Assembly: GCF_964213995.1 (NCBI RefSeq)
Contig: NC_135825.1
Location: 12,896,001-12,960,000, forward strand
DNA from: Mustelus asterias
Lineage: Eukaryota
Reading direction: 5' to 3'
Length of the DNA stretch: 64,000 nucleotides
Numbering within the stretch: position 1 is the stretch's first letter; the number at the start of each line of letters is the position of its first letter. The notes beneath the pieces were generated by a model. The model did no database searches. It was not told the origin of the DNA and was given only the letters and a program-made list of their open reading frames with translations. Positions 3,347 through 53,497 of this stretch are shown one piece after another. The translations under genes and the position numbers were made by a program.

Positions 3347-3673
3347 TTTTATGGACACAAACTGCCTCGATAGTGATGAAAGCTGCAGTGGGAGAAACCA
3401 TCACTGTGGAATGTCCACAGGCAACACAGCACAAACACCGAGAAATCTGGTGGTGTAAGAAAACTTCTGAAATTCGTTGCAATCAGATATCGAGCATTGA
3501 CGGAGACAGAGTCTGGAATGATGATGCAAGAACATCGATCGCTAATACCAACGGTAACATTGCTCTAACCATACACCGACTTGAGGAGACAGACACAGGA
3601 ATATACTGGTGTGGACCTCTATATCAAAACACTCTCCGTGCTTTAGATGTTGTCATACTGAAGGTTTTCTCAG
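3347..3673 (+). CDS. Receptor gene copy 1, IgV domain D1 exon, CD300/pIgR-like
   Basis: Part of ORF 2944..3696; caacag| and G|GTAAGA sites; GETITVEC, WWCKKTSEIRC and DTGIYWC motifs. Confidence 0.92.
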
Positions 3674-4210
3674 GTAAGAATATTTCAGAAGATTGATTAT
3701 AGCTCTGATAATGTGATCTGGCTGCAATAACACAAGACAGCTGCTGTGTGCTGTGTGAACTCAGATTAATAAAGTATTATCACAACTCCTCATGTACAAG
3801 TAGTGACCTCCCATATTCCCATTTCTATCATTTTCCATTAACCTATTTCCACATCCCTTCCATTTATACTCTTCCAAACCAAAAATCATATTCCGCCCAA
3901 GCCTCTTTTATTGATACTTTTATGAAAAGTGAGTGTCGAGAACTGCACTTATAGTCCATCCCTAATTATCCTTGAACTGCCTTCTTGAATCACTGCAGCT
4001 CACGAGGTGTACGTACACCCACAGTGCTGTTAGGGAGGAAGTTCCAGGATTGAGCCAGTGACAGTGAAGGAACGGCGATATATTTCCCAGTCTGGATGGT
4101 GTGTGTTTTGGAGGGGAGCTTGTAAGTGGTGGTGTTCCCATGCACCTGCTTCCCTCCTCCTTCTAGGTGTTAGATGTTGCAGGTTTGGAAGGAGATTTAA
4201 ATCATTGCTT

Positions 4211-6495
4211 TGTAATAGATCGAGGGCGACTCGATCTGGATTGAATCAATTAAGGCTTTATTGCCAACAATAAGAGTATACCTATATATACAATAAGAGT
4301 ATACCTATATATACATATACATATACAGGTCAGACTGAATTACAATGCGAATCTACTACTCGGCTCCAACTGCAAAACGTTCCTTCATCCGTGGTTCGCA
4401 ACCTCTTGCCGATTGGCTCAGCTTCCCACCTTGACAATCCACAGCGCCTGACCCAATCACATGGCCCTCTAAACACTCCCCCACCCCAATTAAAGGGCCA
4501 CAATCATTCCCCCTAAAATCCGAAATACAACTATGGAGGAATAAAGAACAGGATTAGTGTTAAAGCGAAAAGAGTAACAGAAATGGAAAACTCATTAAAG
4601 GTTTAATCAGTCCAGAGGATTCCGGTCTCTGGCAGAGCGCCTCAGTTCAGTGGTTTGCTCTCCGAAGTTTAAAGGGCCAGACGGGACAGATGGGAAAGGC
4701 AGACTCATCAATCCAGGGTCTGGTGGCTCTTCAGCAGCTTCTGGTTCCTCAGTCTCCACAACCAGCGGTTGCTGCGCTCCCACATTCTCCACCAAAATCC
4801 CAGTAACCAACCCCGGCAAAGTTCAACCAACTGCAGGGGGCACCTGTTGATCCTCTGCGTCCATCACTCTCTCCTCCTTCGATGGTCTACCTGTTTCCTG
4901 AGCTGACAGCTTTGTATCTCCACAACATCGGAGACCGGTCCTGTTCTCTCCACAATTTTACCAGCCACCCAGGACGGGCCTGGTGTAAAATATCTGACCA
5001 AGACTGCACCCCCACTTGAAACACTCTGTTTCCTTTTCTTGAATCACAGTTTTCCTTCTGAAAGACTAACCTAGCCTGCACACTCCCTGGCGAATTTGGA
5101 AACATCATGTCCAGTTGTGTTCTGAACTCGCATCCCATCAGCAACTCTGCTGGAATAACCCCTGTGGTCACGTTTGGGGTGGGGTTATAAGACAACAAAA
5201 AACTGTCCATACAAAAAGGAAGAGAACAGTTTACTTGTTTTATTATTGATGATTTGAATGTTTGTACCACACTCTCCACTGGTCCATTTGAGGCTGCGTG
5301 GGAAGGTGTTGATCTCACATGGTGAATGCCATTGGGCTTGAGGAATTTTTGGAATTCTTCCACAGTGAATGATGTGCCATTGTCCGACACAACTACTTCC
5401 GGAATGCCATGGATAGCAGAGAATTTCCTCAATCCATCAATGGTGTCCGTGGCTGTTGGGGACTTCATCAACTGCATATCCAACTACAACTAACATATGG
5501 CCCAGAAATGGCCGGCAAAATCTATATGTAACTTCGACCAAGGTTGACCAGGTCATTCCCAATGGTGGTGAAGCCCATTGAGCTTCGTAACTATGGCATT
5601 GATGAACCATCCGTTCTGTTTCCCTGCCAATTCCTGGTGAAAACACATATACCTGGAGCCTTCATTCTACTTTGACCTCGATGAGAGTGGTGCAGTTCTT
5701 CTAACAGGAGTTAAAGTTAAAGTCACAAGTAGGCTCACATTCACACCAATGAAGTTACTGTGAAAATCTCCATGTCACCACAATCCGGCGCCCGTTCGGG
5801 TACACTGAGGGAGAATTTAGCGTGGCCAATTCATCTAACCAGCACGTCTTTGGAGTGTGGGAGGAAATCAGAGCACCCGGAGGAAACCCACACAGACACG
5901 GGAAGAACATGCAGACACGACTCAGACAGTGATCCAAGCTGGGAATCAAACCTTGGTCCCTGGCGCTGCGACGCAGCAGTGCTAACCACTGTGCCACCAT
6001 ACCTTCCTGGAGTCATCTCCCCAGGGGTGGCACGAGAAACTCTAGCCACCCACAGCAACACCCCATCTTCACAGGTTATCTCCATCCTTCTACTTTGGTA
6101 GGGTTTGAGCTACTCTGACTGATATCACCACCCTCGCATTACCATCTTCTTTACTTCTGACCATACCGGCTCTCTTTTTTCCACAGTTTTATATGTTTCG
6201 CTGAGACTGGCAAGGTCTCTACCAGATGCAGAGCCAGTATAATCTCTTGAGGAACCGGTGGTGGTGCGACTGTTTGTGGCAAAGGCAACGGCTAATTGCA
6301 TCTGCTCGTGATATCTGCGTTCCAGGGTGATGCTGAAACGTATAACTGTACGCTGCAAACAAAGGAGCCCATCTCTGCATCCTTGCAGAGGCAATTAGTG
6401 GCACCGGCTTCTCTAACTAGACCTAACAATGGCTTGTGGCCTGAAACTATTGTAAAATGTCGCCCATAAATGACCAGCAAGTTTTCCTCATCCCT
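4211..6495 (-). mobile_element. Gypsy-type LTR retrotransposon remnant (RNase H-like region, integrase, probable LTR ~4211-4530), interrupted by a SINE
   Basis: HGIPEVVVSDNGTSFT..NGPVESVVQTFK..TTGVIPAELLMG; ASARMQRWA..HHPG..ADAISR. Confidence 0.85.
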
Positions 6496-6814
6496 CTGGA
6501 AGGATTTCTTTTCCACATTTGATCATGTCCCTCTCTCACACACACACTCTCCCCCTCACTCTCTCACACTCTCTCTCTCACATTCTCTCTCTCATTCTCT
6601 CGCTCACACACCTTCTCCCACTCTCACTCCCACACACACACACACTCTATCTCTCTCTTATTCTTTCTCCCAATTACACACACACTCTAACTTTCTCTCA
6701 CTCACTCTCACTCTCACTCTCTCTATACACACACACACACACACACTCCTTCTCACTCTCTCCCCACCCCCCACACACTCATGCACACACTCTCTCTCTC
6801 TCTCTCTCACACGC

Positions 6815-7762
6815 TTACAGAACAAAGAGATCGAGGGGTACATGTTCATAGCTCCTTGAAAGTGGAGTCACAGGTGGACAGAGTGGTGAAGAAGGCATTC
6901 GGCATGCTTGGTTCCATCAGTCAGAACATTGAATACAGGAGTTGGGACGTCTTGTTAAAGTTGTACAAAACATTGGTAAGGCCACACTTGGAATGCTGTG
7001 TGCAATTCTGGTCACCCTATTATAGAAAGGGTATTATTAAACTAGAAAGAGTGCAGAAAACTGCACTATAAGTGCAGTTCTCGACACTCACTTTTCATAA
7101 AAGTATCAATAAAAGAGGCTTGGGCGGAATATGATTTTTGGTTTGTAAGAGTATAAATGGAAGGGATTTGGAAATAGGTTAATGGAAAATGATAGAAATG
7201 GGAATATGGGAGGTCACTACTTGTACATGAGGAGTTGTGATAATACTTTATTAATCTGAGTTCACACAGCACACAGCAGCTGTCCTGTGTTATTTTCTGG
7301 GATGCTACCGGGACTTAATGAATTGAGTTATAAGGAGAGGCTGAATAGACTGGGACTGTTTTCTCTGGAGCGTAGGAGGCTGAGGGGTGATCTTATAGAG
7401 GTCTATAAAATAATGAGGGGCATAGACAAGGTAGATAGTCAATATCTTTTCCCAAAGGTAGGGGAGTCTAAAACTAGAGGGCATAGGTTTAAGGTGAGAG
7501 GGGAGAGATACAAAAGTGTCCAGAGGGGCACTTTTTTCACACAGAGGGTGGTGAGTGTCTGGAACAAGCTGCCAGAGGTAGTAGTAGAGGCGGGTACAAT
7601 TTTATCTTTTAAAAAGCATTTAGATAGTTACATGGGTACGATGGGTATAGAGGGATATGGGCCAAATGCGGGCAATTGGTATTAGTTTAGGGGATTTTTT
7701 AAAAAAGGGCGGCATGGACAAGTTGGGCTAAAGGGCCTGTTTCCATGCTGTAAACCTCTATG
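6815..7762 (+). mobile_element. CR1 LINE 3' fragment (copy at ~47545-48490), interrupted by an inverted insert
   Basis: LYKTLVRPHLEC CVQFWSPYY..LERVQK; LGLFSLERRRLRGDLIEVYKIM. Confidence 0.92.
7065..7294 (-). repeat. Inverted copy of intron sequence 3726-3955 (also 47792-48021 vs 44583-44812)
   Basis: Near-identical 68-aa pseudo-ORF on opposite strands (3748..3954 + and 7066..7272 -). Confidence 0.92.
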
Positions 7763-8491
7763 ACTCTCCCTCTCACACACAAACACACACACAGTCGTCA
7801 TTCTCTTCCACCCTCCATCCCAGCCTAGGGCTTTGCCCAACAGAGTCTCATTCCTGGGCCTTGTGGCCAACTCTCCTCCCCAGGCCTCCTCAAACTTGTC
7901 CGCAGGCCCAGTCTGGAGATGCTGGAGTTGGGTTCCGGTGCATTCTGACAGCAACACCCCACTGGTGGAAGGGCAGGTTGAGAGGCAGTTGTGGGATTCT
8001 TGAGGACGGCACAGTGGCACAGTGGTTAGCCTCACAGCACCAGGGACCTGGGTTTGATTCCAGGCTTGGGTCACTGTCTATGTGGAGTTTGCACATTCAC
8101 CCCGTGTCTGTTTGGGTTTTCTCCGGGTGTTCCGTTTTCCTCCCACAGACCGAAAGATGTGCTGGTTAGGTGCATTGGCTTTCTAGTTTAATAATATCCT
8201 TTCAATAATAGGGTGACCAGAATTGCACACAGTATTCCAAATGTGGCCTTACCAATGTTTTGGTATGACTCCCCCATTCCCCAACCAACCTCCACCTTAA
8301 ACAAATCTATCAGCAAAATCCAGCTTGTTGTTACCACTCGATACCAGGAGGGTGATCCAGTCTGGAAAGTGCCTGCCTGGTTCAGCGAAGACAGATAAAC
8401 TGCCTGTCTGAAGGTTTCTGCATTAAGTTAACTGTAAGACTTTAGAAGTGGCCTCTCTTATTAGCAAGCTTGCTGTGAGATGTTACCCTGG

Positions 8492-8591
8492 CCTTCTTGT
8501 GACATGTTAAAACCGACCTTCCTGTGATATGTTAAAAATGGCCTTCCTGTCACATGTTAAAACCGACCTTCCTGTGACGTGTTAAAACTGG
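8492..8591. repeat. Four tandem 25-bp units CCTTCCTGTGACATGTTAAAA(CCGA/ATGG); copy at ~49219-49318
   Basis: Read directly; units alternate in a 50-bp dimer. Confidence 0.85.
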
Positions 8592-10845
8592 CCTCTCTGC
8601 TTCTGCGGGAGTTGGCAATTATACCCTGGCTATCTTTGATTCTGCTCACTGTTTTCTGAACTGTCTGCCTCTCCCACATTCCTTGACCCTCGAAAATTAG
8701 GATCTGTATGCCACCCCTGATGCTACAGATATCTCGCGAAACCACTTCCTGATAACAGGGCCATTTACGTCTGAACTTATCTAGATGGTTGCTAGGGAAC
8801 ACATCTCATCAGCCCATTTGAATGTGGGTTCCTGCTGTTGCCAGGCAGATTCTTCCTATTTTGCGAAGGGCACTGCCCCCGACCACCCAGGAGGCTTCAA
8901 TGGTCTCCACTCCCACTGCCGAGGCAATCACATCTGGTACCTGTTGCTGGGGAACCGTACGTGATCCTCGCAAGTAAGGACCTCGACTGCTGGCAAGGTA
9001 AGGGCAAGTGAACCCAGACAATAGCGTGTGGTACTCACTAATTACTCAAGCACTCTCAAAGATTCCTCTCACGCCGCCCTCCCCCCTCCTCAACCCCCCA
9101 TCCAGACACCACTCCCCCACTCCTGGATTGCACCAGTCTTCTTTCCTCATAAGGGCCATGGGCCCAGTGCAGGAAGGTGGGATTACAAAGTGAACCTGGG
9201 TGTCCTCGGGCTGGCATGGACAAGATGGGCCAAATGACCTACTTCTGAGCTGTAATTTTTCGATGGTTCTGTCCTACCCCTGTTTCCCACTTCCTCCTCC
9301 CTCTACCCCCCCTCTCCTCCACCCCACTCTTCTGCTCTCCTCTCGCCATCCCCCACTCTACGCCCAGGGCCACCGAGACTCACTCCTCCAATCCTGAATA
9401 CAGCATAATAGTAATGCATACATTAATAAAATGAACTAAGAACTAATGGGGATCTGATGGTGGTTTTGAACACCTGGACTGATAGCTTTTTTGGACTAAA
9501 TAAAAATAAATAAATTCAGGTTTTATTTAATTCATTTCCTTGTGTTTTGATGCAGGTTTTCTGAGCGAATTCGATGCCTTTGATCACATTTGATGTCAAA
9601 TGACAGTTGATCATTTTTAGCTCAAAAATAATGTCAACATTTTCTTGTAGCTTTTGATCTCAATGGGTGAGATTTCAACATTCTAGAATTTACCAGTGAC
9701 CAGAATCTGAACTGGACTAGCCATGTAAACACTGTGGCTACTGGAGTAGGTCAAAGGCTAGGAATCCTGAGGCGAGTAACCCACCACCTGACTTTTCAAG
9801 GCTGACCATAGAACCACAGAAATGATACAGCACAGAAGGGGGCCATTCAGCCCATCTTGTCCATGCTGAGCCAAAGACACTCAAGTGCCCTTTCTAATCC
9901 CATATTCATGCACACGGCCCATAGCCTGTAGCTTACAGGACTTAAGGTGCAGATCTGCCTCCACCACCAACTCAGGCACTGAATTCCATACCCACCATTG
10001 AGTGGGTATGGAAGTCAGGAAAGAGATGGAATACTCTCCATTTGTTTGGATGTGTGTAGCACCAACACTTAAGAAGCTCAACACTGTCCAGGACAAAACA
10101 GCCCACTTGATTGCTATCCCTTCCACAAAAAAACTCAATCCCTCCCCCATCAATGAACAGTGACAGTGTACCATCTACAAGATGCACTGCATGAACTTAC
10201 CAAGACTCCTTAGGCAGCACCTTCCAAACCCACGACCACCACCATCTAGAAGGACAAGAGTAACAAAAACCTGGGAACACCTTTCACCTGGAGGCTCCCC
10301 TCCAAGCCACTCAGCATCCTAATTTGGAAATGTATTGCTGTTCCTTTACTATCGCTGTGTCAAAGTCCTGGAATTCTCACCCTAACAGCACAGTGGGTAT
10401 ACTTTGCAATGAAGATTCAAACTCTATTTGACCTACAAGTAACAAACTCATGTTGCTTGTAAGTCTTTCATGTTCATCCAAAACTAGACCCAGTTCCTGT
10501 AGAACAGGCCTGGAGTTGGATACCATCCATCAACTTTGAAAATTCACCCAGACATGCTGAGCAATTTCATTGCAGCTGCAGAAAATAGAAATGGTTTTTA
10601 TTAACCTTAGACCCAGACACCTCTGAAATTTTAAATGAAGTGTTTAGAATGAGCAAGAATTGAATACAGGAGCGTTTAACAATTACACTGCATTTTATGA
10701 CTATAATCCTTTTCGTACTTTAAAAACAGAAAATATTGTTGACATTTTCAATGTTTGGTTAATTTATCATGTTTTGGGCAATGAAAAATGTTCAGTTTTT
10801 CACCATTTTGAACTTTTCAAAACTCTTTTTCTCATTTATCAACAG

Positions 10846-11172
10846 GTAGATGGGAACCAATCCTATCAGAGGTCAGTGGTGTTGTGGGAAATGCCGCCAT
10901 TATACCGTGTCTGTTCACGGAGAAGGAGAGACTCTATCAGAAATTCTTGTGTAAAGCAACCTCTGTAAATAAATGTATTATTATTGCCAGCTCTAATGGA
11001 GTTCCAGAGAATCGGAATAACGGGAACGTTTCAATCACTATTGATAATTCTTATAATTTTATCGTTACCATGAATAACATAGACAAAGGCAATGAAGGAG
11101 AGTATTGGTGTGGAGCAGAAAAAATCAATGACATAAAGATCGTAGCGATCAGAAACTTGACAATTACTGAAG
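10846..11172 (+). CDS. Copy 1 IgV domain D2 exon
   Basis: Part of ORF 10884..11417; canonical AG/GT, 327 nt, B-strand Cys, Cx7C, EGEYWC. Confidence 0.92.
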
Positions 11173-12610: not shown

Positions 12611-12770
12611 TTAATTTTATTGTTACCAAGAGGAAAGGAAATGAAGGAGTGTTCTGGTGTGGAACAGCAAAAATAAATGGTGTAAACCTTGTAAAGATAA
12701 GAGAATCGGACAGTTGCTGACGGTAAGATTCTATGTAAGATTATTATAATTCAGTCGGTATTGAATCGAA
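12611..12770 (+). pseudogene. Decayed duplicate of the 3' half of the D2 exon plus donor and intron start (copy 1)
   Basis: AATTTTATTGTTACCA..GGAAATGAAGGAGTGTTCTGGTGTGGAACAGCAAAAATAAATG..G|GTAAGATT..ATTATTATAATTCA aligns with 11055-11225. Confidence 0.8.
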
Positions 12771-17929: not shown

Positions 17930-17963
17930 TAGGAAATTCAGAAGTTTCCAACAATACCTCAAG
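17930..17963 (+). CDS. Copy 1 short juxtamembrane exon
   Basis: 34 nt, AG/GT, phase 1 to phase 2. Confidence 0.75.
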
Positions 17964-19273: not shown

Positions 19274-19380
19274 AGACGTTCTGTTGGAGATATGGGCGAT
19301 ATTCCGCTGGCTGCTCTTCAGTGCTCTGGTTGCTTGCACTGTTTCAGTCACGTGCTATGCACATTGTGCAAAAGACCCAG
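19274..19380 (+). CDS. Copy 1 transmembrane exon with intramembrane Arg
   Basis: Within ORF 19197..19394: RDVLLEIWAIFRWLLFSALVACTVSVTCYAHCAKDP; AG/GT flanks. Confidence 0.85.
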
Positions 19381-20553: not shown

Positions 20554-20573
20554 CTCCCCAGGTGAGCAAATGA
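20554..20573 (+). CDS. Copy 1 probable terminal coding exon (APQVSK*); alternative frame ends at 20623
   Basis: atttctccttcag| acceptor, followed by an AT-rich 3' UTR. Confidence 0.55.
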
Positions 20574-23950: not shown

Positions 23951-24703
23951 CGACTCATCCCAAAGATTTCAGAGATGCAAACTGAAAGCAAAACAAATCA
24001 TACGGTGTTGGTAAAAGTGCTCCCTGGAAAGTTCTTTAAGGTTCCCAAGAGAATTCCCAAGCGGGCAGACACAAATTGATGGAGACGCCTCACCCGATTG
24101 TAGCACCACAGAGGGTTCAGCAAAACCTGGCTGACGCCTGAGGGCAGTAATGTCCCAGGGAACATGGAATAGATTGGGGGAAAATCCCTCCCTGAGGTAA
24201 GTGGAGAAGGGGAGATGCCATACCCGAAGACAAACAGCACCTTGTGAAAACCACGGGGGAAATAAAAGTCTGTGTCGAATTATCCACAAACATATCACAG
24301 GGCAAAGTTCAAATTTCTAATCTCACTCAACCCAACAATGCACCTTCACAACCCACTGAGGACAACATGCAGGAGTTGAACTCAAATGTCTCACAAGGAT
24401 TTAAAAATAATTAATTTCCCAACAACGCGCGACAAATAAGTGGCATATTTCTGGCGATGGAGGTGGTCTGCCATTGGCTGTTGGTGGGATCTTCCAGTCC
24501 CGCCAATGTCTGCAGTGTTTTGGATGCACCACACCTACTGCCCCCAGGATCGCACCGTGACTGGTCACCATGACAGGGCCGGAGGATCCCATTGGAGGAA
24601 TGGCTGGAAAATTTATACATAGACCAGAAACAGAACAATGTAACTAAGGGGTTGTAGAAGCACCAATCAAAGGGTTAAACTAAGGCTTCCTACCTACAAC
24701 AAT

Positions 24704-24721
24704 TGGGGGCTCGTCCGGGAT
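24704..24721 (+). promoter_or_regulatory. Retroviral primer binding site, tRNA-Pro
   Basis: TGGGGGCTCGTCCGGGAT, 2 nt after an LTR-like end ...CTACAACA. Confidence 0.92.
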
Positions 24722-25089
24722 AATCTGTTTACGGTCCGGTTGAATGGCCACGACCGGGACACCGGAATAGATTATCGAACTTTAAATTGAATGGGTCAAA
24801 ATGCAGTGGGAATCATCTGTGATAAGAGTGTGTGATGTTCTGACGTGAGTGAGATGGAGACTGTCTGAGTGATCGCCGGAGTTTGAAGGAAAAGCCTTCA
24901 TGTGTAAGAGTTAGAAGGAAAGGCCTTCTAAGGTGAAGCCGGCTTAAAAAAATAGTATAAGCAGTGGTACGGAGGGATCTGATCAACCCTTACAGGTATC
25001 ACCGGACTCCGATAAGAGCGACCTGGGAGGGGGAGAGCGAGAAGGGAGAATAAATCACTCCAGGTGGTGAGTATAAACTTATCAGTGTT

Positions 25090-26100
25090 ATGGCGGGACA
25101 AAGACAGTGGGGACCCCCTGGGTCCCTAATAAATGAATTTATGATTAAGAGGGACAGACTCATAAAACAGATGATAAAAGGGGGATGGGATTTAGACCAC
25201 CCACTAGACCAACAACGAAAATGGTTGGAAAAGGAAAAGAAAAACAAAACTAAGAAAATTGGAGTTCTCTTAATTCATCAATTGGCCGGATTAATTGAAC
25301 AGGTTTCAGTCTCGGGTAAGAAATGGGCTGATATCAAAGAAAAAATTAAAATGTTAATCAACAAAGGGGTGAAAGAGCCTATGAATTTGCGGAGCGACTC
25401 TTTAGAGTATACCAAGAATGTTGGGGAGTACCCGAAACTGCCCGAACAGATAGAGCCTTTTTACAAGCATTTAAAGACGGGCTGTCGCCAGCTCACCAAA
25501 AAAATCCTTAAAATGGGAGTTCTCAATACCCAGACTTATGATGAATTAGTGGAATGGGCATCTGGAATTAGAGATGGACCAGATGAGAAACCATACCTAC
25601 AAATAAAACAGGAAAACGTTGGTGCAAGCAGTAGAGAAGATAAATCAAAGGGTGCGTGCCATAATTGTAGGAAACTGGGTCACTTTGTCAGGCACTGTAG
25701 GGCTCCAAAGGGGGGTAGTGAAGTCTGCAAAATGGCAGATAATGAAGTAATGAGGGGATCTGCAGGTCCTCTCATTGACGTGTACTTATCAAAGAAAAAA
25801 GCATTAATAAAGAGGATGCAAAAGGATGGCTGGGATACGTCTCAGACCTTAGAGTAGCAGAAAACGTGGATATATAAAGAAAAGAGAAACGAGGCAGAGA
25901 AGATAGGAGTATTGTTAATGCATCAGTTAGCTGGACTAATTGAGCAAGATAGAAAAAAGATTAGAGAACTAGAATTCAGAATAAGAGAATTGGAGAAACA
26001 AAACCAAGTCTTCGAAGAAAAACAATAGAGAGGGGAAACTGTTCCTCTACCTCCTAATGAGTCCAGACAGGGACCAACCACTCCTCCAGAGGAGTAGGAA
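25090..26100 (+). pseudogene. gag: ERV gag remnant (N-terminal domain, probable capsid C-terminus, nucleocapsid, second N-terminal-like domain)
   Basis: ORF 25090..25857 with CHNCRKLGHFVRHC (CX2CX4HX4C); continues past stops as KIGVLLMHQLAGLIEQ. Confidence 0.85.
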
Positions 26101-26364
26101 GTGCTAGAATACAACTCAGCACCAGTAACCCAGAGGGGAACTGGTGCACGGCCAAAAGCAAAATTATAAACCCGTCACCCAGTGTAAAACAGAGATTCAG
26201 AGAGTATTAGGGAATGCTCCCACTTATTGGAGCAGAATTACCACAATAAAACAATTAAGAGGGATCAATGAATGTGAGAATCAAAGGAAAGATAAAGAGG
26301 TATCTGGCTTGCCAATGTTGTTCCAAAATCCCGATACGAATGAACAGGAGTGGTGGAATTGATC

Positions 26365-27613
26365 CAGTGTAGATAATCACCAGACGGCACTATACTCAGT
26401 CCTGAAACACTTAGAAGAACAGGGACTAAAGGCGAGCCCCAGGAAGGCCCAAATAGGGAAAGCGCAGGTGTTATATTTGGGACACCTGATATCCCAGGGG
26501 ACCAAAGAAATGCCATTGGACAGGAAAACAGCCATACAGCAAATGCCAAGACCAGTAACCGTCCGGGGGGTAAGGAAGGTTTTGGGGTTGTTTAATTACA
26601 GCCGCAACTTTATACCAGAATTCGCAAGGCTCGCCGAACCAATACAAAGGCTCGTAAAAGGGGGGAAACCCGCTCTAGAAGTTATAGAATGGGGATCAGA
26701 ACAGGAAAGGGCATATAGTAAACTAAAAGTAGAACTAATGAAGGCTCCAGGACTTGGACTGCCTGACTCTCGTAAAGATTTTCACATCTATTGTAATAAC
26801 GAGGGGGGGTTTTATTCGGCAGTAGTCACACAGGTCCATGGGGACAAACAGCGACCCGTGGGTTATTATTCCACAGTGGAGGGCCCCGTAGTAACCGGGT
26901 TACCCAGATGTATAGCCGCACTAGATTGCGCGGCATGGGCAGTAAAGGTCAGCGAGCCCATCATAATGACGGGGAATATTGTTTTACACACCAAACACAC
27001 CTTGGTGGAAATGCTGAACACAGGAAAATTGCGGTCTGTCTCAAACATGAGAAGGGCGAAGTGGGAGGCAGTGCTTCTCCCACCCACTAAGTCCATCACC
27101 ATTGTACAAGACATGGGAATGAACCCCGCAGAAGGAATGTTAGGTGAAGGGTCTCCCCACTCATGTGGGGACGTAGACGAAGAGGTAGAGGAGAGTAGAA
27201 TAAAAGATGTGCCCCTGGAGGCACCAGATTTGGTCCTGTTTGTGGATGGATCACGGAAATATGCAGATGTAGGCCCATTACAGGACAGGATTAGACGGTA
27301 TGTATTAGAGTTAAGCTCCCAATTGAAAGATATGCGGAAAACAGTATGGGACAAACAAATAGTGACGGATGAGCACAATAAACTAGAACAGACCCCGGAG
27401 GTACCCCCGACGGGCAGCAAGGTTATGGTAAAAACACGACCAGGAAAACCTGGATTTGCCCCCAAATGGAAAGGCCCCTATGAGGTCATTATCAGTGGAG
27501 ACACCTGTGCCTGCATAGATATGCAAGGTAGGGGTGTCTGGAAGCATTGGACTCAGTTAAAGGAATACACCAATTACCGCAACAAAACAGTTAAAAAGGG
27601 AATAAAAGGTTAA
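26365..27613 (+). pseudogene. pol: ERV pol remnant: RT C-terminal half, connection domain and RNase H start, fused in frame to the integrase C-terminus
   Basis: GLKASPRKAQ..VLYLGH..LGLFNYSRNFIP..APGLGLPD..RPVGYYS..LFVDGS, then PKWKGPYEV; no protease, no YxDD, no integrase DDE core. Confidence 0.9.
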
Positions 27614-27900
27614 AAGAAAACAAGCAGGCTATGAATCTCTCTCTTACTTAAGAGAGAGAGAGAGAGATGTAAGATGTAATTGCGATCGAGAACCTCATGT
27701 GGTGGAATGGGGTATAGCAGATCAATGCGAGTTTAATAAATTAATAAATTTTACGATAGGGGCATCGGACAGAGATTTGGGGAATGTGGGAATAATAGCA
27801 TTAGATTACATCTGAAGAGTCGTAAGGAGAGTTAACCATCTAAGCACGCAGTAGATTCGATCTTGCATCTGCCTGTGTAAAGATAAATATTTTAGTAGGG

Positions 27901-28238
27901 ATCATAGAAATCATAGAAACCCTACAGTGCAGAAGGAGGCCATTCGGCCCATCGAGTCTGCACCGACCACAATCCCACCCAGGCCCTACCCCCACATATT
28001 TACCCGCTAATCCCTCTAACCTACGCATCTTAGGGGCAATTTTATTTTTAACCTGGCCAATCAACCTAACCCGCACATCTTTGGACTGTGGGAGGAAACC
28101 GGAGCACCCGGAGGAAACCCACGCAGACACGAGGAGAATGTGCAAACTCCACACAGACAGTGACCCGAGCCAGGAATCGAACCCGGGACCCTGGAGCTGT
28201 GAAGCAGCAGTGCTAACCACTGTGCTACCGTGCCGCCC
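27901..28238 (-). mobile_element. Near-intact HE1-type SINE inserted inside the ERV
   Basis: Complete head, V-domain and tail on the minus strand. Confidence 0.9.
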
Positions 28239-30469
28239 AAAAGTGATAAAATAAATGGATTATTTGGATCAGGCTTTTGTTAAATTTGAAAATGTATTTT
28301 TGATAGAACTGAAGTTGAAAAGATAAATAGAAAGAATTATTCCTGCGTATTTGAAATGATGATTAATCACTTGTTTATGTTCCTCTGAGTTATAAGACTT
28401 GCAGTAATTTTAAGATATAGTCAAAATTTAACAGAGAAGAGAGTTACATAAGGTAGAATGGGAGTGCGTGTGTCATACTGGGAATTATTATACTGCCATA
28501 ATGCATTCTAATTAAAATGTGTTACATGGATCAACCATGAAACTGTATTAAATGACAGACAGGCTAAAAGGGAGTGCCCGCCTATAATACCAAATTGACA
28601 AATCAATATAATTAGAGATGAGGGAAATAATTCAGTGGAATAATGAGATAAGAAAATGCTGGGGAAGTATTTGTTACAAACGGTTAAAGATTAAAGTGAT
28701 AAGATTTCTTGAATTTACTTCTGTTTTGAGTTGAATTACAGCTTGGAAGGCAGCAGAATAAAAGTGACTGTTAATCAACGGTCTGTATTCTTAAATGTTT
28801 TACTTCCATCCCAGTTTAAGATGTTAAGTCTGAATAAATGTTGGAAGCTTCCATGTGTACCTGTGTGTTTAACAACGTGATTGCGTGAATGTTTTGTTGT
28901 TGTTCGTTTTAATGTTGAGAAAGGAGTTAAACCTTGGAAGGACCATGTGCTCTTTCCTTGTCTTGAAGTTGAAATTATAAGAGTGTAGTTGAGAAGTTTA
29001 AAAAAAATAAATAATTTTGTGAAAAATAGAAAAGCAGGCACAAAAAAATGAGGTGAATATACTGTCTATGAGTCAGTTTAAAGTCTATCAAATCAATGAA
29101 TCGTAGTTCCGATTATCCCAAGTTACAGCAGGAGATTAATCAATTAAAACCTCAGTTGTTAATACAAATAAAGATGTTGTCCTTGAGTATTTTTAATTTG
29201 CATTTGATGCCAACCATTGAACACCATGAATTATTGGAACTTGTGTTGCCGGTTAGTTAGCGATATGAAATTCAAGACTTGTGTGATGTTCCGATAACAT
29301 GCAACAACTTACATCATTTAAATCATCTAACATTGATGATAGTTCTGATAGTGTAACTAGTTAAAACTATATACTGCCATTGGAATTGTGCCATCTATTG
29401 TTCAAGGTTTTCCAAATCTAAGAACACTGCAAAGCTCAGAACCTAGCCAGCTAGGAAGCAAACCAAATCATTTCTAATCAAGTAACTCTTGTTATTGTTA
29501 TATGTATTGTGCTTGTTATTGTTCTAAAAGTGCAAGGAATTCTGATCTGGAGCTCAGTTTAAAAATGGAAACAAATTAATTTAAAAATTAAATTAAGAAG
29601 GTTTTGAGATACCCGATATAATATATATTGTGTATTGATAAAAACATAAGTCTGTGAAAAAAAAGTCTAGTTATTCCAAACATGTAACCATTCTTTGCCA
29701 TAATTTGTAATAGCTTGAACAATTAATATTAACATGACAGGAAGTGAAACCGGATTACTTAAGAGAGAGAGAAAAAGAGTTGGAGACTGGCTTTGCAGCC
29801 AGACTCAGAAATCTTGCATCATTTCGGTTATCTGTGTTTTTAAAGAGCTGTGTGTGGCAGCATAAACTATTGGCATCTGTGAGACCTTATGAGACAATCT
29901 GTCTATAGAAGAATCATTTCTGCTTAAACATTGCACTTTCAAATGTGGACAAACAAATGATCAAATTAGATATAATGTAAGAATACATCATACAAAGATC
30001 GGAGTTGTATGGTATGTGATTTAAATGAGAAAAGCGATGTCTTTTGATAGAATGTCCGGCTGCAGCCAGTGCAAAGTGTTGTGTGATTCGCACTAAGCCA
30101 ACTGAAGGGTCTGTTTATTTCTTCAGAATAAACTCGACTGATCTGAAGTAAATATGCCTTTCTTTAAGCATTGCTTTCGAAATAACGGTTATTTTAGAAA
30201 AAGGAGAGAGAGACCAACCAAAAACCAGCGCTGAGATTTTTTAAAAAACATCTGTTGCGAAAGCATAACTAAATTAGATATTATTATTACATACAAGCAG
30301 TCTCCAGCTACATCAACAACTTGGCCATGAGAAAGTTTGTTTACCTTACATTGTACTATCAGAGAATGCAGCTAAGTTTCTAAGTTGGACTCAGAATTCC
30401 AAGCTGCTGAGGCCAAATTAGCTTCAATTAACTTAAAGCATAGCACAATTAATTACATTGGGCAAAAAT

Positions 30470-30920
30470 ACTTTGACCTGGCGAAGGCCATACAGACATC
30501 GGGGAAAAAAACGTGGATGAAGGTATTGCCCACCATACTAAATGAGATTAAGGGTTGCTACAAACCAAACAACCGGATTAACCCCTTATGAGCTAATGAC
30601 AGGACGGACGACGCAATTACCAAAAAGCATCATAACAGGTGGGACCGATGTAGGTCCACTAAAAGATAAAATCAGGAGATATGTTTTGGAACTAAGCACC
30701 CAACATAAATCGGTAAAAGACAATCAAGAAATAAGAGATGCAGAGAGAGCTTGAAATGCTCCCTGACAGTCCCAACAGTGGGATGTCCTAGTAAAAATAT
30801 TACCTAACAAATCAGGGCTTGTACAAAAATGAAATGAGCCGCATGAAGTATGATATCTGTGCCTGTATGTACTCAGTTGAATATGCTGAAATTAATTGGA
30901 AAAATATGTGATATACTCCA
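30470..30920 (+). pseudogene. pol: Second, diverged ERV integrase C-terminal remnant
   Basis: WMKVLPTIL/MRLRVATNQTTGLTPYELMTGR..DVGPLKDKIRRYVLELS, homologous to DVGPLQDRIRRYVLELS at ~27265. Confidence 0.85.
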
Positions 30921-31049
30921 ATTGCAGATATAAAGAAACAACAACTGACCTCCAAGCAAGCTGAACGGGCGCGCGGAAACTTTGCGCGTGGGCGATATAG
31001 CCTTCGGACCATTGTATAACGGTCACGCGGGATATTAGTAAGTGATAAG

Positions 31050-32467
31050 ATGCTTCTCATGCTGATACTCACGACCCTGGCCCTGTTAGCCATAGCGGGA
31101 GAATATAAATTGAATTATGAGGAGTTAGGGGATGAAGTACAGTGATCATCTCTGTAACGATGACTCTGTCTATTGTATGAACAACTTTGTGTATATGTCT
31201 TATCTGTATGCATCACAATCGAATCTGAGCAAGTGCTGGGTCTGTTCACACATTCCCACGCACGGAGGAAAGGGAGGAATTCCCTTATTTCCTATCCCTT
31301 TATCAGCTCCAGAAGTAATTGAATGGGTTTTAAATAAGGAATGGAACCCAGAAAGGGACAAGGAAACTGACATTTAAAACCCCATCGGGTACCACTATGC
31401 AGGGTATCAGCAACAGTGATGTTGTTTCAAGGCTCGGGGGCGGAGGGTGCTCTTTATCGACCTTTAAGAAGAATTACCAGCCCCGCTACAACAGATCAGA
31501 TTCCCCACCCGACTTCATTGTGAAAAATCAACAAAGGGGAGTTATCTGCCTGACAAGAAATGGAACCATACCTGTTGGCCGTAGCTACTGTATACAGCAG
31601 GTTGATATCACTGATGACGCTGAGGCCATGATACAGGTCACAATCCGGTGCCCCATAGCCACCGTCCCGGTTAACCTCTCCTCCGCTTATATAAGCACGA
31701 TGACTGCATATAATGATACCTATTTTGTCTGTGGAAACAATGCCTATCTGTGGCTTCCCTGGAATTGGACAGGATCGTGTTATTTGGCTTATGTGGTGCC
31801 TTAAATTCACCATTACACTGACTTACGGGACCACCCCGAGATACACATGCTTAGGGCTAAGTGAGCCATTAGTGAGACAGAACGATTCTTCATGATAGCC
31901 TACCCATTTTTTGGGACGGCAAAGGCAGCACAGGAACTTATACGGATGGCCTCAACCCTAGAGAAAGTTGCAAATAAGACTAAGGATGGATTCGAGGAGG
32001 TGAGCACGGCCGTCTCTGAAATGTCAGCAGAGGTCGTAGCTATTCAAACTATGGCGTTACAGAACTGATTGGAACTCGATTATGTGCTAGCCTCCCAAGG
32101 TGGAACATGTGCCATAGTTGGCTCGAAGTGCTGTACGTATATCCCCGAAGCTTCTGAGAATATAACTCACTTAGCAGATCATATTAAACAAGTAGCAAAA
32201 GCAATACAGGAAGAAGGGAACCAATAGCATGATTATAACCCTCCGGGCTGGCTGGGGCAATGGTTCGGGTCGTGGGGTTCATACCTGATGCATGGATTGA
32301 TTGTATTAATTGTAATTGTAATTACTTGCTGTGTTTGTATGGCATTATTGAACGCCTGTAGCAAAACAGTAACAGCACGAATTATGACGGTCGCAAGTGT
32401 ACAGGTGGAGGGGGCAGACCTCCCGACTAAGGAGCTAGGCCCATTCCCCGATAACATGTGGTTCTGA
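31050..32467 (+). pseudogene. env: ERV env pseudogene, gamma-type
   Basis: Signal peptide MLLMLILTTLALLAIAG, CWVC, CGNNAYLWLPWNWTGSCYL, furin site RAK* (likely CGA>TGA), ISD LQN*LELDYVLASQGG, CX6CC (CAIVGSKCC), TM anchor; several stops and frameshifts. Confidence 0.92.
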
Positions 32468-32518
32468 GTTGGTCCTAAATGCCATGGTTGGACCTGGCAT
32501 CCGACCAAAATGGGGGAA

Positions 32519-33186
32519 TGAAGTCGGGAATGGGTTAATGAACTTTGTCACACTTAAGCATTAAAACCCGAACTCTGTGATTTTGTTGAGAACACTGCAG
32601 AGTCCATGTTTTTGTCAGAGTTCGGTGTTTTTCATGTCTGTGCCAGAATAGAGGAACAGCTATTCTTGTTATTAAGAAATGCGATTAACCCAGCTCGAAA
32701 TAAGCTAAACAGTCTCCATTTTTATGTACCTTTGTTTAACACGATGGAGTTGACATGTATGCCTTCTGTCTTTGTATAACCATAGATTTATATATATATA
32801 TATATATTCATCATACGTTATTCATTTTATCCTGATATAAAGTATTATACAAACTTGTATGTATATTAGTTAACTTGTTTGTGCAAAACCTGTGATGTTG
32901 TTTCAAGGATATAAATGACGAACAATCGTGGCCTTGGAGATCAAACAAACTACGCAGAGGAAGATACTGCTAATACAACAAGAATCTCACCATGAACGAT
33001 GACAGACATCTTAGAGAATTGCAATGTAATGAGGGCAGGGCCCGGGACATATATAAACTCTGTTCTTACTTGTGTTCGATGAGAAGGCTGGGGGTCCACT
33101 GTTAGGAACCTCACTTCTCCCACAATTGTGAAAATAAACACTGCATTTTGAACCACTAATAGTGTCAGAGGTTTTTACCGACAACA
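32519..33186 (+). mobile_element. ERV 3' LTR
   Basis: Follows PPT AAAATGGGGGAA; TGAAGTCGG...CCGACAACA imperfect terminal inverted repeat; TATATAAA near 33050; AATAAA near 33133. Confidence 0.75.
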
Positions 33187-39194: not shown

Positions 39195-39234
39195 ATGAGG
39201 TTCACCGCGTTGCTGCTCCTCACTTTGATATCAA
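39195..39234 (+). CDS. Receptor gene copy 2, exon 1 (signal peptide MRFTALLLLTLIS), phase-1 donor
   Basis: GACCATGA Kozak-like start, hydrophobic leader, A|GTAAGA donor in phase 1 matching the phase-1 acceptor of the IgV exon at 44204. The link crosses N gaps. Confidence 0.8.
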
Positions 39235-42742: not shown

Positions 42743-43246
42743 AGACACACACACTCTCACTCCCAAGGACACACACCCACACAATCCCTCACACAGACAT
42801 AGACGCACACTCACTCATTCCCTCACACACAGACTCTCACTTACTCTCTCACTCTCTCACACGCACACACACACACACACACACTCTCTCTCACTCTCCC
42901 TCCCACAAAAACACTCTCCTTCTCTCACTCCCACACACACTCACTCACACATTTGGGGCTCTGCTCAACAGAGTCTCACCCCTGGGCCTTGTGGCCAGCT
43001 CTCCTCCCCAGGACCTCCTCATGCTTGTCCCCAGGCCCAGTTTGGAGGTGCTGGAGTTGGGTTCCGTGCACTCTGACAACAACACCCCACTGGTGGAAGG
43101 GCACGATGAGAGGTAGTTGTGGAAATCTTGGGATTTTAAAAATGAATATTAATTCTAAAAATGAGGAGTTACATTAACCCTTTACTGCTCACTTGTTACA
43201 TCTCTGCTGGAGTATTGGGTACTTCAAGTATGGGGATATAAAAAGG

Positions 43247-43555
43247 GGTGGCACGGTGGCACAGTGGTTAGCACTGCTGCCTCACAGTGCCAGGGACCTG
43301 GGTTCAATTCCCGGCTTGGGTGACTGTCTGTGTGGAGTCTGCACGTTCTCCCCGTGTCTGCGTGGGTTTCCTCAGAGTGCTCCGGTTTCCTCCCACAGTC
43401 TGAAAGGCTTGCTGGTTAGATGCATTGGCCAGGCTAAATTCTCCCTCGGTGTACCTGAACAGGTGCCGGTGTGTGGCGACGAGGGGATTTTCACAGTAAC
43501 TTCATTGCAGTGTTAATGTAAATCTACTTGTGACTAATAAATAAACTTTACTTTA
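43247..43555 (+). mobile_element. V-SINE variant with a different tail (..TGTGACTAATAAATAAACTTTA); also at 2487-2790, 20868-21168, 33673-33970, 35375-35777 and 39790-40080
   Basis: Same tRNA head and V-domain, distinct 3' module. Confidence 0.85.
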
Positions 43556-44203
43556 CAATTCTGGGCACCACACTCGAGGAAGGGGGCAAGGGCACAGAGT
43601 GGATTTACCAGGATGATGCCAGGGATGAGGGAGTTTAGTTATGTGAACAGATTGGAGAAACCGGGATAATAGTCCTTGGAACAGAGCAGATTAAAGGGAA
43701 ATCTAATCAATGTATTGAAAATGAGGAAGGGTTTTAATACAGCAAGTGGAGAGAGCAATTATTTCCTCTCGCTGGTGGATTGGTCACCAGAGAACATAGA
43801 TTTCAAATAGTTGGAATACAAACCAGTGGATAAATGAGGGGAAATTGTTTCATGCAGAAGATTGTTATGATGCGGAATACACCACCTGGAATGGTGATGG
43901 AATGAGATTCCAAAGGAACTTTCAGAAGGCAGTTGGACATGTGTTTGGAGGGGATTAATGTGCAGGGTTGTGGGGGAAGCTGGGCCGTGGGATTCAATTG
44001 GACAATAAATTTCCAAAGAGCTGGCACAGCCATGACAGGCCGAATGTCCTCCATCTCTGCTTTAAGATTCTTGATTCCAGTCCCACCCAGGACTTGTGTG
44101 GGTCCCCTTGAGAAGCACTGGCTAGCATTGGACCAAAAGGATTGTCTACAATTGGTTGTTGGGATATTTCCAGCTTTCTTAAAATGTTATGTTTCACCAA
44201 CAG

Positions 44204-44530
44204 TTTTACGGACACAAACTGCCTCGATAGTGATGAAAGCTGCAGTGGGAGAAACCATCACTGTGGAATGTCCACAGGCAACACAGTACAAACACTTTGA
44301 AATCTGGTGGTGTAAGAAAACTTCAGAAACTCGTTGCAATCAGATATCGAGCATTGACGGAGACAGAGTCTGGAATGTTGATGCAAGAACATCGATCGCT
44401 AATACCCACGGTAACATTTCTGTAACCATACAACGACTTGAGGAGACAGACACAGGAACATACTGGTGTGGACCTCTATATCAAAACACTCTCCATGCTT
44501 TAGATGTTGTCATACTGAAGGTTTTCTCAG
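44204..44530 (+). CDS. Copy 2 IgV domain D1 exon, CD300/pIgR-like
   Basis: caacag| acceptor, G|GTAAGA donor, 327 nt phase 1-1; GETITVEC...WWCKKTSETRC (Cx7C extra disulfide)...DTGTYWC. Confidence 0.92.
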
Positions 44531-45067
44531 GTAAGAATATTTCAGAAGATTGATTATAGCTCTGATAATGTGATCTGGCTGCAATAACACAGGACAGCTG
44601 CTGTGTGCTGTGTGAACTCAGATTAATAAAATATTATCACAACTCCTCATGTACAAGTGGTGACCTCCCATATTCCCATTTCTATCATTTTCCATTAACC
44701 TATTTCCACATCCCTTCCATTTATACTCTTACAAACCAAAAATCATATTCCGCCCAAGCCTCTTTTATTGATACTTTTATGAAAAGTGAGTGTCGAGAAC
44801 TGCACTTATAGTCCATCCCTAATTATCCTTGAACTGCCTTCTTGAATCACTGCAGCTCACGAGGTGTACGTACACCCACAGTGCTGTTAGGGAGGAAGTT
44901 CCAGGATTGAGCCAGTGACAGTGAAGGAACGGCGATATATTTCCCAGTCTCGATGGTGTGTGTTTTGGAGGGGAGCTTGTAAGTGGTGGTGTTCCCATGC
45001 ACCTGCTTCCCTCCTCCTTCTAGGTGTTAGATGTTGCAGGTTTGGAAGGAGATTTAAATCATTGCTT

Positions 45068-47350
45068 TGTAATAGATCGAGGGCGACTCGATCTGGATTG
45101 AATCAATTAAGGCTTTATTGCCAACAATAAGAGTATACCTATATATACATATACATGTGCAACAAGGTCAGACTGAATTACAATGCAAATCTACTACTCA
45201 GATCCCTGGCTCCAACTGCAAAACGTTCCTTCATCCGTGGTTCGCACCCCCTTACCGATTGGCTCAGCTTCCCACCTTGACAATCCACAGCGCCTGACCC
45301 AATCACATGGCCCTCTAAACACTCCCCCACCCCAATTAATGGGCCACAATCATTCCCACTAAAATCCGAAATACAACTATGGAGGAATAAAGAACAGGCT
45401 CAGTGTTAAAGCGAAAAGAGTCACAGAAATGGAAAACTCATCAAAGGTTTAATCAGTCCGGAGGATTCCGGTCTCTGGCAGAGCGCCTCAGTTCAGTGGT
45501 TTGCTCTCCTAAGTTTAAAGGGCCAGACGGGACAGACGAGAAAGTCAGACTCATCAATCCAGGGTCTGGTGGCTCTTCAGCAGCTTCTGGTTCCTCAGTC
45601 TCCACAACCAGCGGTTGCTGCGCTCCCACATTCTCCACCAAAATCCCAGTAACCAACCCCGGCAAAGTTCAACCAACTGCAGGGGGTACCTGTTGATCCT
45701 CTGCGTCCATCACTCGCTCCTCCTCCGATGTTCTACCTGTTTCCTGAGCTGACAGCCTTGTATCTCCACAACGTCGGAGACCAGTCCTGTTCTCTCCACA
45801 ATTTTACCAGCCACCCAGGACGGGCCTGGTGTAAAATATCTGACCAAGACTGCACCCCCCGCTTGAAACACTCTGTTTCCTTTTCTTGAATCACAGTTTT
45901 CCTTCTGAAAGACTAACCTAGCCTGCACACTCCCTGGCGAATTTGGAAACATCATGTCCAGTTGTGTTCTTAACTGGCATCCCATCAGCAACTCTGCTGG
46001 AGTAACCCCTGTGGTCACGTTTGGGGTGGGGTTATAAGACAACAAAAAACTGTCCATACATAAAGGAAGAGGACAGTTTACTTGTTTTATTATTGATGAT
46101 TTGAATGTTTGTACCGCACTCTCCACTGGTCCATTTGCGGCTTCGTGGGAAGGTGCTGACCTCACATGGTGAATGCCATTGGACTTGAGGAATTTTTGGA
46201 ATTCTTCCACAGTGAATGATGTGCCATTGTCCGACACAACCACTTCCCGGAATGCCATGGATAGCAGAGAATTTCCTCAATCGATCAATGGTGTCCGTGG
46301 CTGTTGGGGACTTCATCAACTGCATATCCAACTACAACTAATATAAGAAACATATGACCCAGAAATGGCCGGCAAAATCTATATGTAACTTCGACCAAGG
46401 TTGACCAGGCCATTCCCAATGGTGGTGAAGCCCATTGAGCTTCGTAACTATGGCATTGACGAACCATCCGTTCTGTTTCCCTGCCAATGCCTGGTGAAAA
46501 CACATATGCCTGGGGCCTTCATTCTACTTTGACCTCGATGAGAGTGGTGCAGTTCTTGTAACAGGAGTTAAAGTTAAAGTCACAAGTAGGCTCACATTCA
46601 CACTGCAATGAATTTTCTGTGAAAATCTCCAAGTCACCACAATCCGGCGCCCGTTCGGGTACACTGAGGGATAATTTAGCGTGGCCAATTCATCTAACCA
46701 GCATGTCTTTGGAGTGTGGGAGGAAACCAGAGCACCGAGAGGAAACCCAACAGACACGGAGAGAACATGCAGACACAACTCAGACAGTGATCCAAGCTGG
46801 GAATCAAACCTTGGTCCCTGGCGCTGTGACGCAGCCGTGCTAACCACTGTGCCACCATACCTTCGTGGAGTCATCTACCCAGGGGTGGCACGAGAAACTC
46901 TCGCCACCCGCAGCAACACCCCATCTTCACAGGTTATCTCCATCCTTCTACTTTGGTAGGGTTTGAGCTACTCTGACTTATATCGCCACCCTCGCATTAC
47001 CATCTTCTTTACTTCTGACCATACCGGCTCTCTTTTCTCCACAGTTTTATCTGTTTCGCCGAGACTGGCAAGGTCTCTACCAGATGCAGAGCCAGTATAA
47101 TCTCTTGAGGAACCGGTGGTGGTGCGACTGTTTGTGGCAAAGGCAACCGCTAATTGCATCTGCTCATGGTATCTGCGTTCCAGGGTGATGCTGAAACGTA
47201 TAACTGTACGCTGCAAACAAAGGAGCCCATCTCTGCATCCTTGCAGAGGCAATTAGTGGCACCGGCTTCTCTAAATATACCTAACAATGGCTTGTGGTCT
47301 GAAACTATTGTAAAATGTCGCCCATAAATGACCAGCAAGTTTTCCTCATC
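45068..47350 (-). mobile_element. Gypsy-type remnant, duplication unit 2
   Basis: ORF 45710..46258 and neighbours, paralogous to 4211-6495. Confidence 0.85.
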
Positions 47351-51571: not shown

Positions 51572-51898
51572 GTAGATGGGAACCAATCCTATCAGAGGTC
51601 AGTGGTGTTGTGGGAAATGCCGCCATTATACCGTGTCTGTTCACGGAGAAGGAGAGACTCTATCAGAAATTCTTGTGTAAAGCAACCTCTGTAAATAAAT
51701 GTATTATTATTGCCAGCTCTAATGGAGTTCCAGAGAATCGGAATAACGGGAACGTTTCAATCACTATTGATAATTCTTATAATTTTATCGTTACCATGAA
51801 TAACATAGACAAAGGCAATGAAGGAGAGTATTGGTGTGGAGCAGAAAAAATCAATGACATAAAGATCGTAGCGATCAGAAACTTGACAATTACTGAAG
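51572..51898 (+). CDS. Copy 2 IgV domain D2 exon
   Basis: tttatcaacag| acceptor, G|GTAAGG donor, 327 nt phase 1-1; GNAAIIPC...KFLCKATSVNKC (Cx7C)...NEGEYWC. Confidence 0.92.
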
Positions 51899-52388
51899 GT
51901 AAGGATCAATATAAAATTATTATAATTCAATCAGTATTGTATAAAACTCACAAAACAATAACAGAGGCTGGCATGGTGGTGCAGTGGTTAGCACTGCTGC
52001 CTCACAGCACCAGGGACCCGGATTCCATTCCAGCCTCGGGTCACTGTCTGTGTGGAGTTTGCACATTCTCCCAGTGTCTGTGTGGGTTTCCTCCGGGTGA
52101 TCAAGTTTCCTCCCACACTCCAAAGATGTGCGGGTTAGGTTGATTGGCCATGCTAAATTGACCCAAGCGTCAGGGGAATTACCAGGGTTAATATAGGTTA
52201 CGGGAATAGGGCCTCGGTGGGATTGTAGTCGGTACAGACTCGATGGGCCAAATGGCCTCCTTCTGTCCTGTAGGGATTCTATGATTCTTTGAACAATTGG
52301 TCAATGCTGTTGTTCATGTTTTACACAAGGCTATCACCCTATTTCATCTCAATCTTGCAGCATATCCTTCTATTCTTTTCCCCCTCAG

Positions 52389-52454
52389 TAAGTTCCTCTC
52401 GATTCACCCGAAAAGTATCTACAATATTTGGCACCACTGCACCTTATGGTACAG
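52389..52454 (+). CDS. Copy 2 predicted Ser/Thr stalk exon (VSSSRFTRKVSTIFGTTAPYGT)
   Basis: Polypyrimidine tract plus CAG, G|GTAAAC donor, 66 nt symmetric phase 1-1, open frame. Confidence 0.55.
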
Positions 52455-53336: not shown

Positions 53337-53497
53337 TTAATTTTATTGTTACCAAGAGGAAAGGAAATGAAGGAGTGTTCTGGTGTGGAACAGCAAAAAT
53401 AAATGGTGGAAACCTTGTAAAGATAAGAGAATCGGACAATTCCTGACGGTAAGATTCTATGTAAGATTATTATAATTCAGTCGGTATTGAATCGAAC
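53337..53497 (+). pseudogene. Decayed D2-like pseudo-exon (copy 2)
   Basis: Paralogous to 12611-12770. Confidence 0.8.

Follow-up and report, generated by a model that had tools for sequence, protein, structure and literature searches.

Is the distal immunoglobulin (Ig) domain of the receptors encoded at this locus of the shark Mustelus asterias selected to change while the neighbouring domain is held constant? The question arises from a 64,000-nucleotide (nt) stretch of contig NC_135825.1 (positions 12,896,001 to 12,960,000, forward strand), here called the window; coordinates are counted from its first letter, with negative values lying upstream. An earlier note on this DNA compared two copies of a distal exon (D1; 3347-3673 and 44204-44530), found mostly amino-acid changes between them beside an unchanged membrane-proximal exon (D2), and proposed positive selection on a ligand-binding domain.

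Organization of the receptor gene cluster

Using annotated M. asterias proteins labelled pIgR-like, we mapped six pIgR/CD300-like genes (A, B, C, E, F and G) within 264 kb, with two or three Ig domains per gene. A genome search with D1 returned 13 matches, nine of which were D1-type exons (70-100% identity) inside 165 kb, and a search with D2 returned 24 matches, six of D2 type. Gene A runs in the order leader (-7251), D1a (-2211), D1b (3349), D2, stalk, transmembrane (TM) exon and short tail; gene B has the order leader (39195), one D1 (44206), D2, stalk, TM and short tail. Genes E, G and C (the last at 70084-105750) each have two D1 exons.

All window features of both genes lie on the plus strand. 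For gene A these are the second distal V-set exon D1b (3347-3673, AG/GT splice sites intact), the membrane-proximal V-set exon D2 (10846-11172, 327 nt), a short stalk exon (17930-17963, with a tandem acceptor at 17930 or 17933), the TM exon (19274-19380, whose hydrophobic segment has an Arg close to its outer end) and the last coding exon (20554-20573), which encodes a short tail lacking a tyrosine motif and ends in a stop. The leader and D1a (about -2213 to -1887, some 2 kb before the window start) lie upstream. Gene B comprises a leader exon (39195-39234), a single D1a-type distal exon (44204-44530, AG/GT ends intact), D2 (51572-51898), a stalk exon (58725-58758), a TM exon with Arg (60069-60175) and a last coding exon for a short tail (61349-61368). 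The two genes share a direct duplication of about 20 kb (3058-23209 versus 43913-64000; 373 differences in 19,716 sites), whose divergence is uneven, at 3.7% over 4300-6500, 0.7% over 6640-10800, and between 0 and 7% per 330 nt.

Several other features accompany the cluster. Between genes A and B lies an insertion resembling a retrovirus or LTR element (24700-33185, plus strand, ends approximate), with an RNase H match at 26363-27610 and a zinc-knuckle-like open reading frame at 25054-25854. A degenerate D2-like exon remnant (12613-12702 in gene A, plus strand; tblastn 58% over 33 amino acids) recurs downstream of D2 in gene B (53339-53428) and in gene C (89169-89258, beyond the window). A tandem array of about 3 kb with a 30-bp period occupies 99121-102072 (L028-L029) inside an intron of gene C. 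Gene F (L039, contig positions 12839226-12839501, minus strand) has a frameshifted D2 and intact stalk, TM and tail exons; no leader or D1 was found for it, and it is likely a pseudogene. At least 15 more distant V-set exons (25-37% identity) at 11.9-12.7 Mb of the same contig continue the cluster about 1 Mb upstream. The 936-residue database model P0002, spanning -41601 to 61368, strings together genes E, A and B as a single eight-domain protein, leaving out the leader, stalk and TM exons that belong to each, and a catshark model, P0003, similarly joins three D1-D2 units to an ITIM-type tail. These chains may be fused annotation or real read-through splicing.

Receptor type and family membership

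The paired-receptor architecture invoked in the earlier note is real. Five genes (A, B, E, F and G) encode a membrane segment with Arg near its outer end and a short tail free of tyrosine motifs; gene C encodes an uncharged membrane segment and a tail with the ITIM-like motifs ITYSTV, TIYANL and VEYSTL. According to PMC13107469, Arg near the N-terminal end of the membrane segment marks FcR-gamma/zeta-coupled receptors (CD89, NKp30, NKp46). Because their Arg sits in this position, genes A and B are both predicted to be activating; the same prediction extends to all five Arg-bearing genes, with gene C predicted to be inhibitory.

The D1 exons encode V-set Ig domains (Pfam V-set), and all nine can form a second disulfide between the C and C' strands (C36-X7-C44). 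A V-set with a C-C' disulfide (CX6-9C) characterizes the CD300/TREM/pIgR-like class, as described in bioRxiv 10.1101/2022.04.21.489081. A fold search with an AlphaFold model of D1 gave CD300c, TREM2 and NKp44 as the nearest structures, CD300c being the top match. Sequence matches were to pIgR and CD300, the best whole-sequence match among solved structures being multi-domain pIgR. The D1-D2 layout is also found in homologues from sharks, rays and chimaera, and a second homologue search, covering proteins of 773-2205 amino acids, added nothing further. No MDIR appeared by name among the named homologue matches, names being available for a minority of the 150 matches.

Synteny did not connect the cluster with the human CD300 locus, which has a TTYH gene (TTYH2) as a neighbour: by this one marker, no Tweety gene lies on the cluster's contig (C25), the matches falling on C5, C12, C23 and two small contigs. 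C25 carries NFYA at 9.78 Mb and a PFKFB gene at 20.7 Mb, genes that in humans lie beside the TREM and PIGR clusters. A search for the IL10 family gave no match anywhere and is uninformative. Nor does the locus look like a true single-copy Ig transporter pIgR, with six local genes and a variable D1.

The two-copy contrast arose from mismatched exons

The counts that prompted the question were exact. The two 327-nt exons differ at 14 nt and at 11 amino acids (W>R, H>Y, R>F, I>T, D>V, N>H, A>S, L>V, H>Q, I>T and R>H), TCT>TCA is the single purely synonymous codon, four cysteines (Cys 22, 36, 44 and 88) are kept in both, and the D2 exons of genes A and B are identical (0/328 columns). The imbalance of 14 to 0 is beyond chance (Fisher p 5e-5). 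These exons are not, however, the same D1 in two copies, as had been assumed: the counterpart of the 44204 exon is D1a of gene A, and D1b had been used in its place because D1a falls outside the window. D1a differs from 44204-44530 at 3/327 nt and two amino acids, and its region with flanks (-3674 to -215) is 98.3% identical to 42743-46217 on the plus strand of gene B. Between corresponding exons the count is three differences in D1 and none in D2, which is not significant (p 0.12). The contrast reported earlier thus arose from comparing D1b of gene A with a D1a-type exon.

Taken alone, the pair gave 12 nonsynonymous (Nd) and two synonymous (Sd) differences, with a pN/pS of 1.84 that was not significant (p 0.33). 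The flanking introns, fixed beforehand as the yardstick, went against selection on this pair: they differ at 59/1967 sites (3.0%) versus 14/327 (4.3%) in the exon (p 0.23), and their divergence is patchy (0.8-4.0%). A comparison of nonsynonymous sites with the nearest flank (12/248 versus 16/889, p 0.01) was discarded, that flank having been picked post hoc; against all of the flank, p was 0.13. The proposed concentration in loops did not hold up either. With loops assigned from the secondary structure of the AlphaFold model (pLDDT 91), 4 of the 11 changes fell in BC, CC' or FG, which make up 22 of the 108 residues (p 0.17), and seven lay elsewhere. Five of the 11 D1b residues (W2, R31, D58, L73 and R97) recur in other paralogues, and CGA>TTT need not be a single triple event, since CAA and CAT occur in other copies. 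The D1/D2 contrast is mostly a matter of age, with older exon duplicates set against a recently homogenised D2 tract, superimposed on a genuine trend, seen across the family, for D1 to diverge further than D2.

Support for diversifying selection across the D1 family

Positive selection on the distal domain type, which failed for the pair first quoted, held for the family of nine D1-type exons, all from one assembly. We used a tree-free count of distinct variants per column. It yielded 86.2 nonsynonymous variants over 241 sites (0.357) versus 11.8 synonymous variants over 83 sites (0.143), a ratio of 2.49 (p 0.001). The intron flanks of D1 carried 88 variants in 600 sites (0.147) in eight copies, E1b being left out because its downstream flank is not homologous. 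Synonymous density was therefore about that of introns, and nonsynonymous density was 2.4 times the intronic one (p 2e-10). The equality of synonymous and intronic densities also ruled out a raised local mutation rate (exon hypermutation).

The ratio was stable. Leaving out one exon at a time gave 2.2-2.7 in all nine sets (2.59 without D1b, labelled A1b in these sets), and disjoint sets gave 2.8 (A/B/C) and 2.4 (E/G). Restricted to 85 CpG-free codons it was 2.9, and varying kappa from 1 to 4 kept it at 2.2-2.7. We simulated neutral evolution under four settings, three of which gave each block its own tree and included hypermutable CpG sites and double mutations; 2 of 600 runs attained 2.49, and recombination did not inflate the tree-free ratio (means 0.96-1.07).

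Codon models, run in our own implementation rather than codeml, agreed with the proposal that dN/dS across paralogues exceeds 1: M0 omega was 2.68 for the nine exons, or 2.66 on an intron-derived tree. None of 53 recombining neutral simulations attained 2.68 (maximum 2.35), and six intron pseudo-frames gave omega 0.68-1.23 with likelihood-ratio test (LRT) values of 0.1-9.2. The site-model LRTs ranged from 48 to 51 for M1a/M2a and M7/M8, with 48.3 for M1a/M2a; this value was exceeded in 1 of the 53 simulations, and two more reached 44-46. Since neutral recombining simulations can match these LRTs, our conclusion is based on the tree-free result, and site posteriors serve as leads only.

Reading frame, splice sites and the four cysteines are intact in each of the nine D1 exons. 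The TM exon, compared across five genes, had a ratio of 0.38, and together with the near invariance of D1 residues 1-27 this indicates that the genes are under constraint. Among paralogues of two catshark species, D1 identity was 84% (five domains) and 75% (three domains) versus 91% and 96% for D2, although some of the S. canicula domains may be redundant models. Diversifying selection on the D1 family is thus well supported.

Distribution of variation within D1

Nonsynonymous density peaked in FG (0.87), CC' (0.65) and C' (0.62), and residues 1-27 and strand F had almost none. The BC, CC' and FG loops differed from the rest of D1 (p 0.044). Density was also 0.39 over D-E-EF, so the variation is not confined to one face, and an apparent contrast between front and back faces (0.49 versus 0.19) was set aside as driven by the invariant residues 1-27. 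Twelve sites had a posterior above 0.95 (2, 31, 38, 41, 46, 48, 51, 58, 76, 91, 92 and 98), four of which belong to the eleven changes listed earlier.

Two peculiarities of the alignment are recorded here. Codons 3-27 (75 nt; 3355-3429) contain zero variants, synonymous ones included, in the nine copies, in contrast to the high variability of the remaining exon. E1b (-31378) and G1b (-78810) both have a fifth cysteine (position 43, beside C44), and a deletion makes their FG loop two residues shorter.

D2 identity and the mosaic structure of gene B

The statement that D2 is unchanged applies to genes A, B and C, with gene C 1 nt off, but not to the other D2 copies, which differ at 11-19 of 328 nt, or at 11-18 when set against the copy in gene A. 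When gene B was painted against its neighbours, it showed an A-like 5' part, a middle closer to C and an A-like TM part, and A, B and C were nearly the same around D2. The intron tract at 51913-56912 (plus strand) groups with the inhibitory-type gene C and not with A, and by unique sites the counts were 115 A-unique versus 12 C-unique over 51.9-56.9 kb and 36 C-unique versus 0 A-unique over 56.9-57.9 kb. Gene B is therefore a mosaic of activating-type and inhibitory-type neighbours.

The identity of the D2 exon between A and B (0/328) compared with 21/2000 differences in the flanking kilobases gave p 0.06. Across six D2 copies there were 22 nonsynonymous and two synonymous variants (0.092 versus 0.025 per site, p 0.04), and the nonsynonymous density did not differ from that of introns (0.074, p 0.35). 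Because this density does not depart from the neutral one, D2 changes less than D1 but strong constraint on it is not demonstrated; its identity reflects a tract homogenised among three genes more than strong constraint.

Other sequencing runs

No RNA specific to genes A or B, D1b included, was seen in the runs searched. Run X17, which we guess to be RNA from another organism, gave contigs confined to D1- and D2-type exons and resembling other family members. In run X1, one contig matched 3520-3691 with a single difference (low depth, read as presence only), so the private 3' variants of D1b exist outside this assembly or in another haplotype. Contig 19 of run X2, also at low depth, covers 3428-3750. 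Its 5' half resembles D1b, its 3' residues are of the common type, and 6 nt are missing in frame at 3566; it is possibly a further mosaic allele.

Interpretation and alternatives

We consider it quite likely that this is a tandem pIgR/CD300/TREM-like cluster whose distal domains are under diversifying selection, probably from microbial ligands, and are reshuffled by crossing-over or conversion. The D1-type domains would face outward and bind a changing ligand, and new D1 surfaces would be favoured. Signalling would pass through an adaptor of FcR-gamma/zeta type in the Arg-bearing receptors, and in gene C it would depend on the ITIM-like tyrosines of the tail. D1 surfaces would be spread and reshuffled over activating and inhibitory genes by exons being duplicated in tandem, deleted or converted, and unequal crossing-over or gene conversion probably continues to shuffle and homogenise the genes. 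Given selection, by analogy we regard pathogens that bind these receptors as its reasonably probable cause, the main alternative being a variable host ligand.

An account without selection, in which the D1/D2 difference is age plus gene conversion and the high dN/dS a recombination artefact, fully explains the pair first compared, with its non-corresponding exons, its flanks at 3.0% versus 4.3% and a true counterpart differing at 3/327. The patchiness of the duplicated block (0-7% per 330 nt) also fits it, and recombination does inflate the site-model LRTs here. For the family it is largely refuted by a tree-free ratio that recombination leaves uninflated and that 2 of 600 simulations attained, and by a nonsynonymous density 2.4 times that of introns; overall we judge it unlikely. 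Less probable again is a relaxation of selection, whether on D1b as a superfluous or untranscribed additional exon or in activating genes undergoing decay. Relaxation would raise omega to 1 at most, and not to 2.5; all nine exons retain frame, cysteines and splice sites, and the ratio stays at 2.59 without D1b, with the TM exon purifying (0.38). To its credit stand gene F, with a frameshifted D2 and no leader or D1 found, and several traits of D1b: private changes (I42, A72, H76 and I85) mostly outside loops, no sequon at position 70 where three close copies have one, and no specific RNA seen. A false tandem assembly, with A and B representing alternative haplotypes of a single locus and their differences being allelic, is very improbable. 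Long stretches are 98-99.9% identical, but gene B is without one D1 exon and is composed of three tracts, some A-like and some C-like, and an insertion of 8 kb lies between the two genes on a contig of 58.7 Mb.

Diversification could instead track a host ligand that is polymorphic or has several isotypes (for example immunoglobulins of the shark, MHC or lipids), in which case the proteins would be Ig binders of pIgR or Fc-receptor type; we regard this as a lesser possibility. Multi-domain pIgR gave the best whole-sequence matches among solved structures, databases call the proteins pIgR-like, and the BC loop aligns with the corresponding loop of pIgR D1. However, the pIgR scores sum over five domains with weak per-domain E-values, CD300c, TREM2 and NKp44 lead the fold search, paired tails and BC-loop variation at 28 and 31 are more in keeping with a signalling sensor than with a transcytosis receptor, and a review table (PMC7916673) places the emergence of pIgR in bony fish. 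We also entertain, as an unlikely extension, a germline combinatorial sensor kit in which positively selected D1 exons are duplicated, deleted and swapped among genes that share a homogenised D2 as adaptor module. One sensor could then be moved between activating and inhibitory tails, and read-through splicing across neighbouring genes would add multi-sensor chains. Gene B would be a hybrid of this kind, and the chains are suggested by database models from two shark species, one with 8 domains and one with 6.

Comparison with known receptor families

Among cartilaginous fish, the skate MDIRs form a multigene activating and inhibitory family similar to CD300, TREM and pIgR (PMC3031540), and by description they resemble the present genes in having paired types, CD300/TREM/pIgR-like V domains and variable domain number. 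For CD300A and CD300C, PMC12447643 reports gene conversion in primates; the shared traits are a CX7C V-set, paired tails, conversion that keeps ectodomains alike and loss of activating copies, whereas CD300 has one Ig domain and the shark genes two or three, at about 25% identity. Xenopus CEACAMs combine conversion with a nonsynonymous excess that falls on the CC'C''FG face of their distal V domain (PMC5112662). Like them and mammalian CEACAMs, the shark cluster shows a nonsynonymous excess in the distal domain, densest in FG, CC' and C', and probable conversion between activating and inhibitory genes, but CEACAMs are an unrelated family, and in Xenopus conversion affects the distal N exon, whereas the tract shared by activating and inhibitory shark genes holds the proximal D2 and the distal exons diverge. 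With pIgR the genes share tandem CX7C V domains and the database name of the proteins, and they differ from it in being multi-copy, with paired signalling tails and a diversifying ectodomain. The literature searched, mostly outside subscription journals, contained no selection or conversion statistics for this shark cluster.

Implications

This cluster is a further case of a pattern familiar from other vertebrates, and it is what a specialist would expect. Residues 31, 38, 41, 46, 48, 51, 58, 91, 92 and 98 are candidate ligand contacts. Judged from their sequence features, the shark proteins annotated as pIgR-like would be sensors, not Ig transporters, and database model P0002 probably fuses three genes. 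The analysis quantifies diversifying selection and gene conversion in a paired receptor family of cartilaginous fish, and so extends the pattern of CEACAM and CD300 to the oldest lineage of jawed vertebrates.
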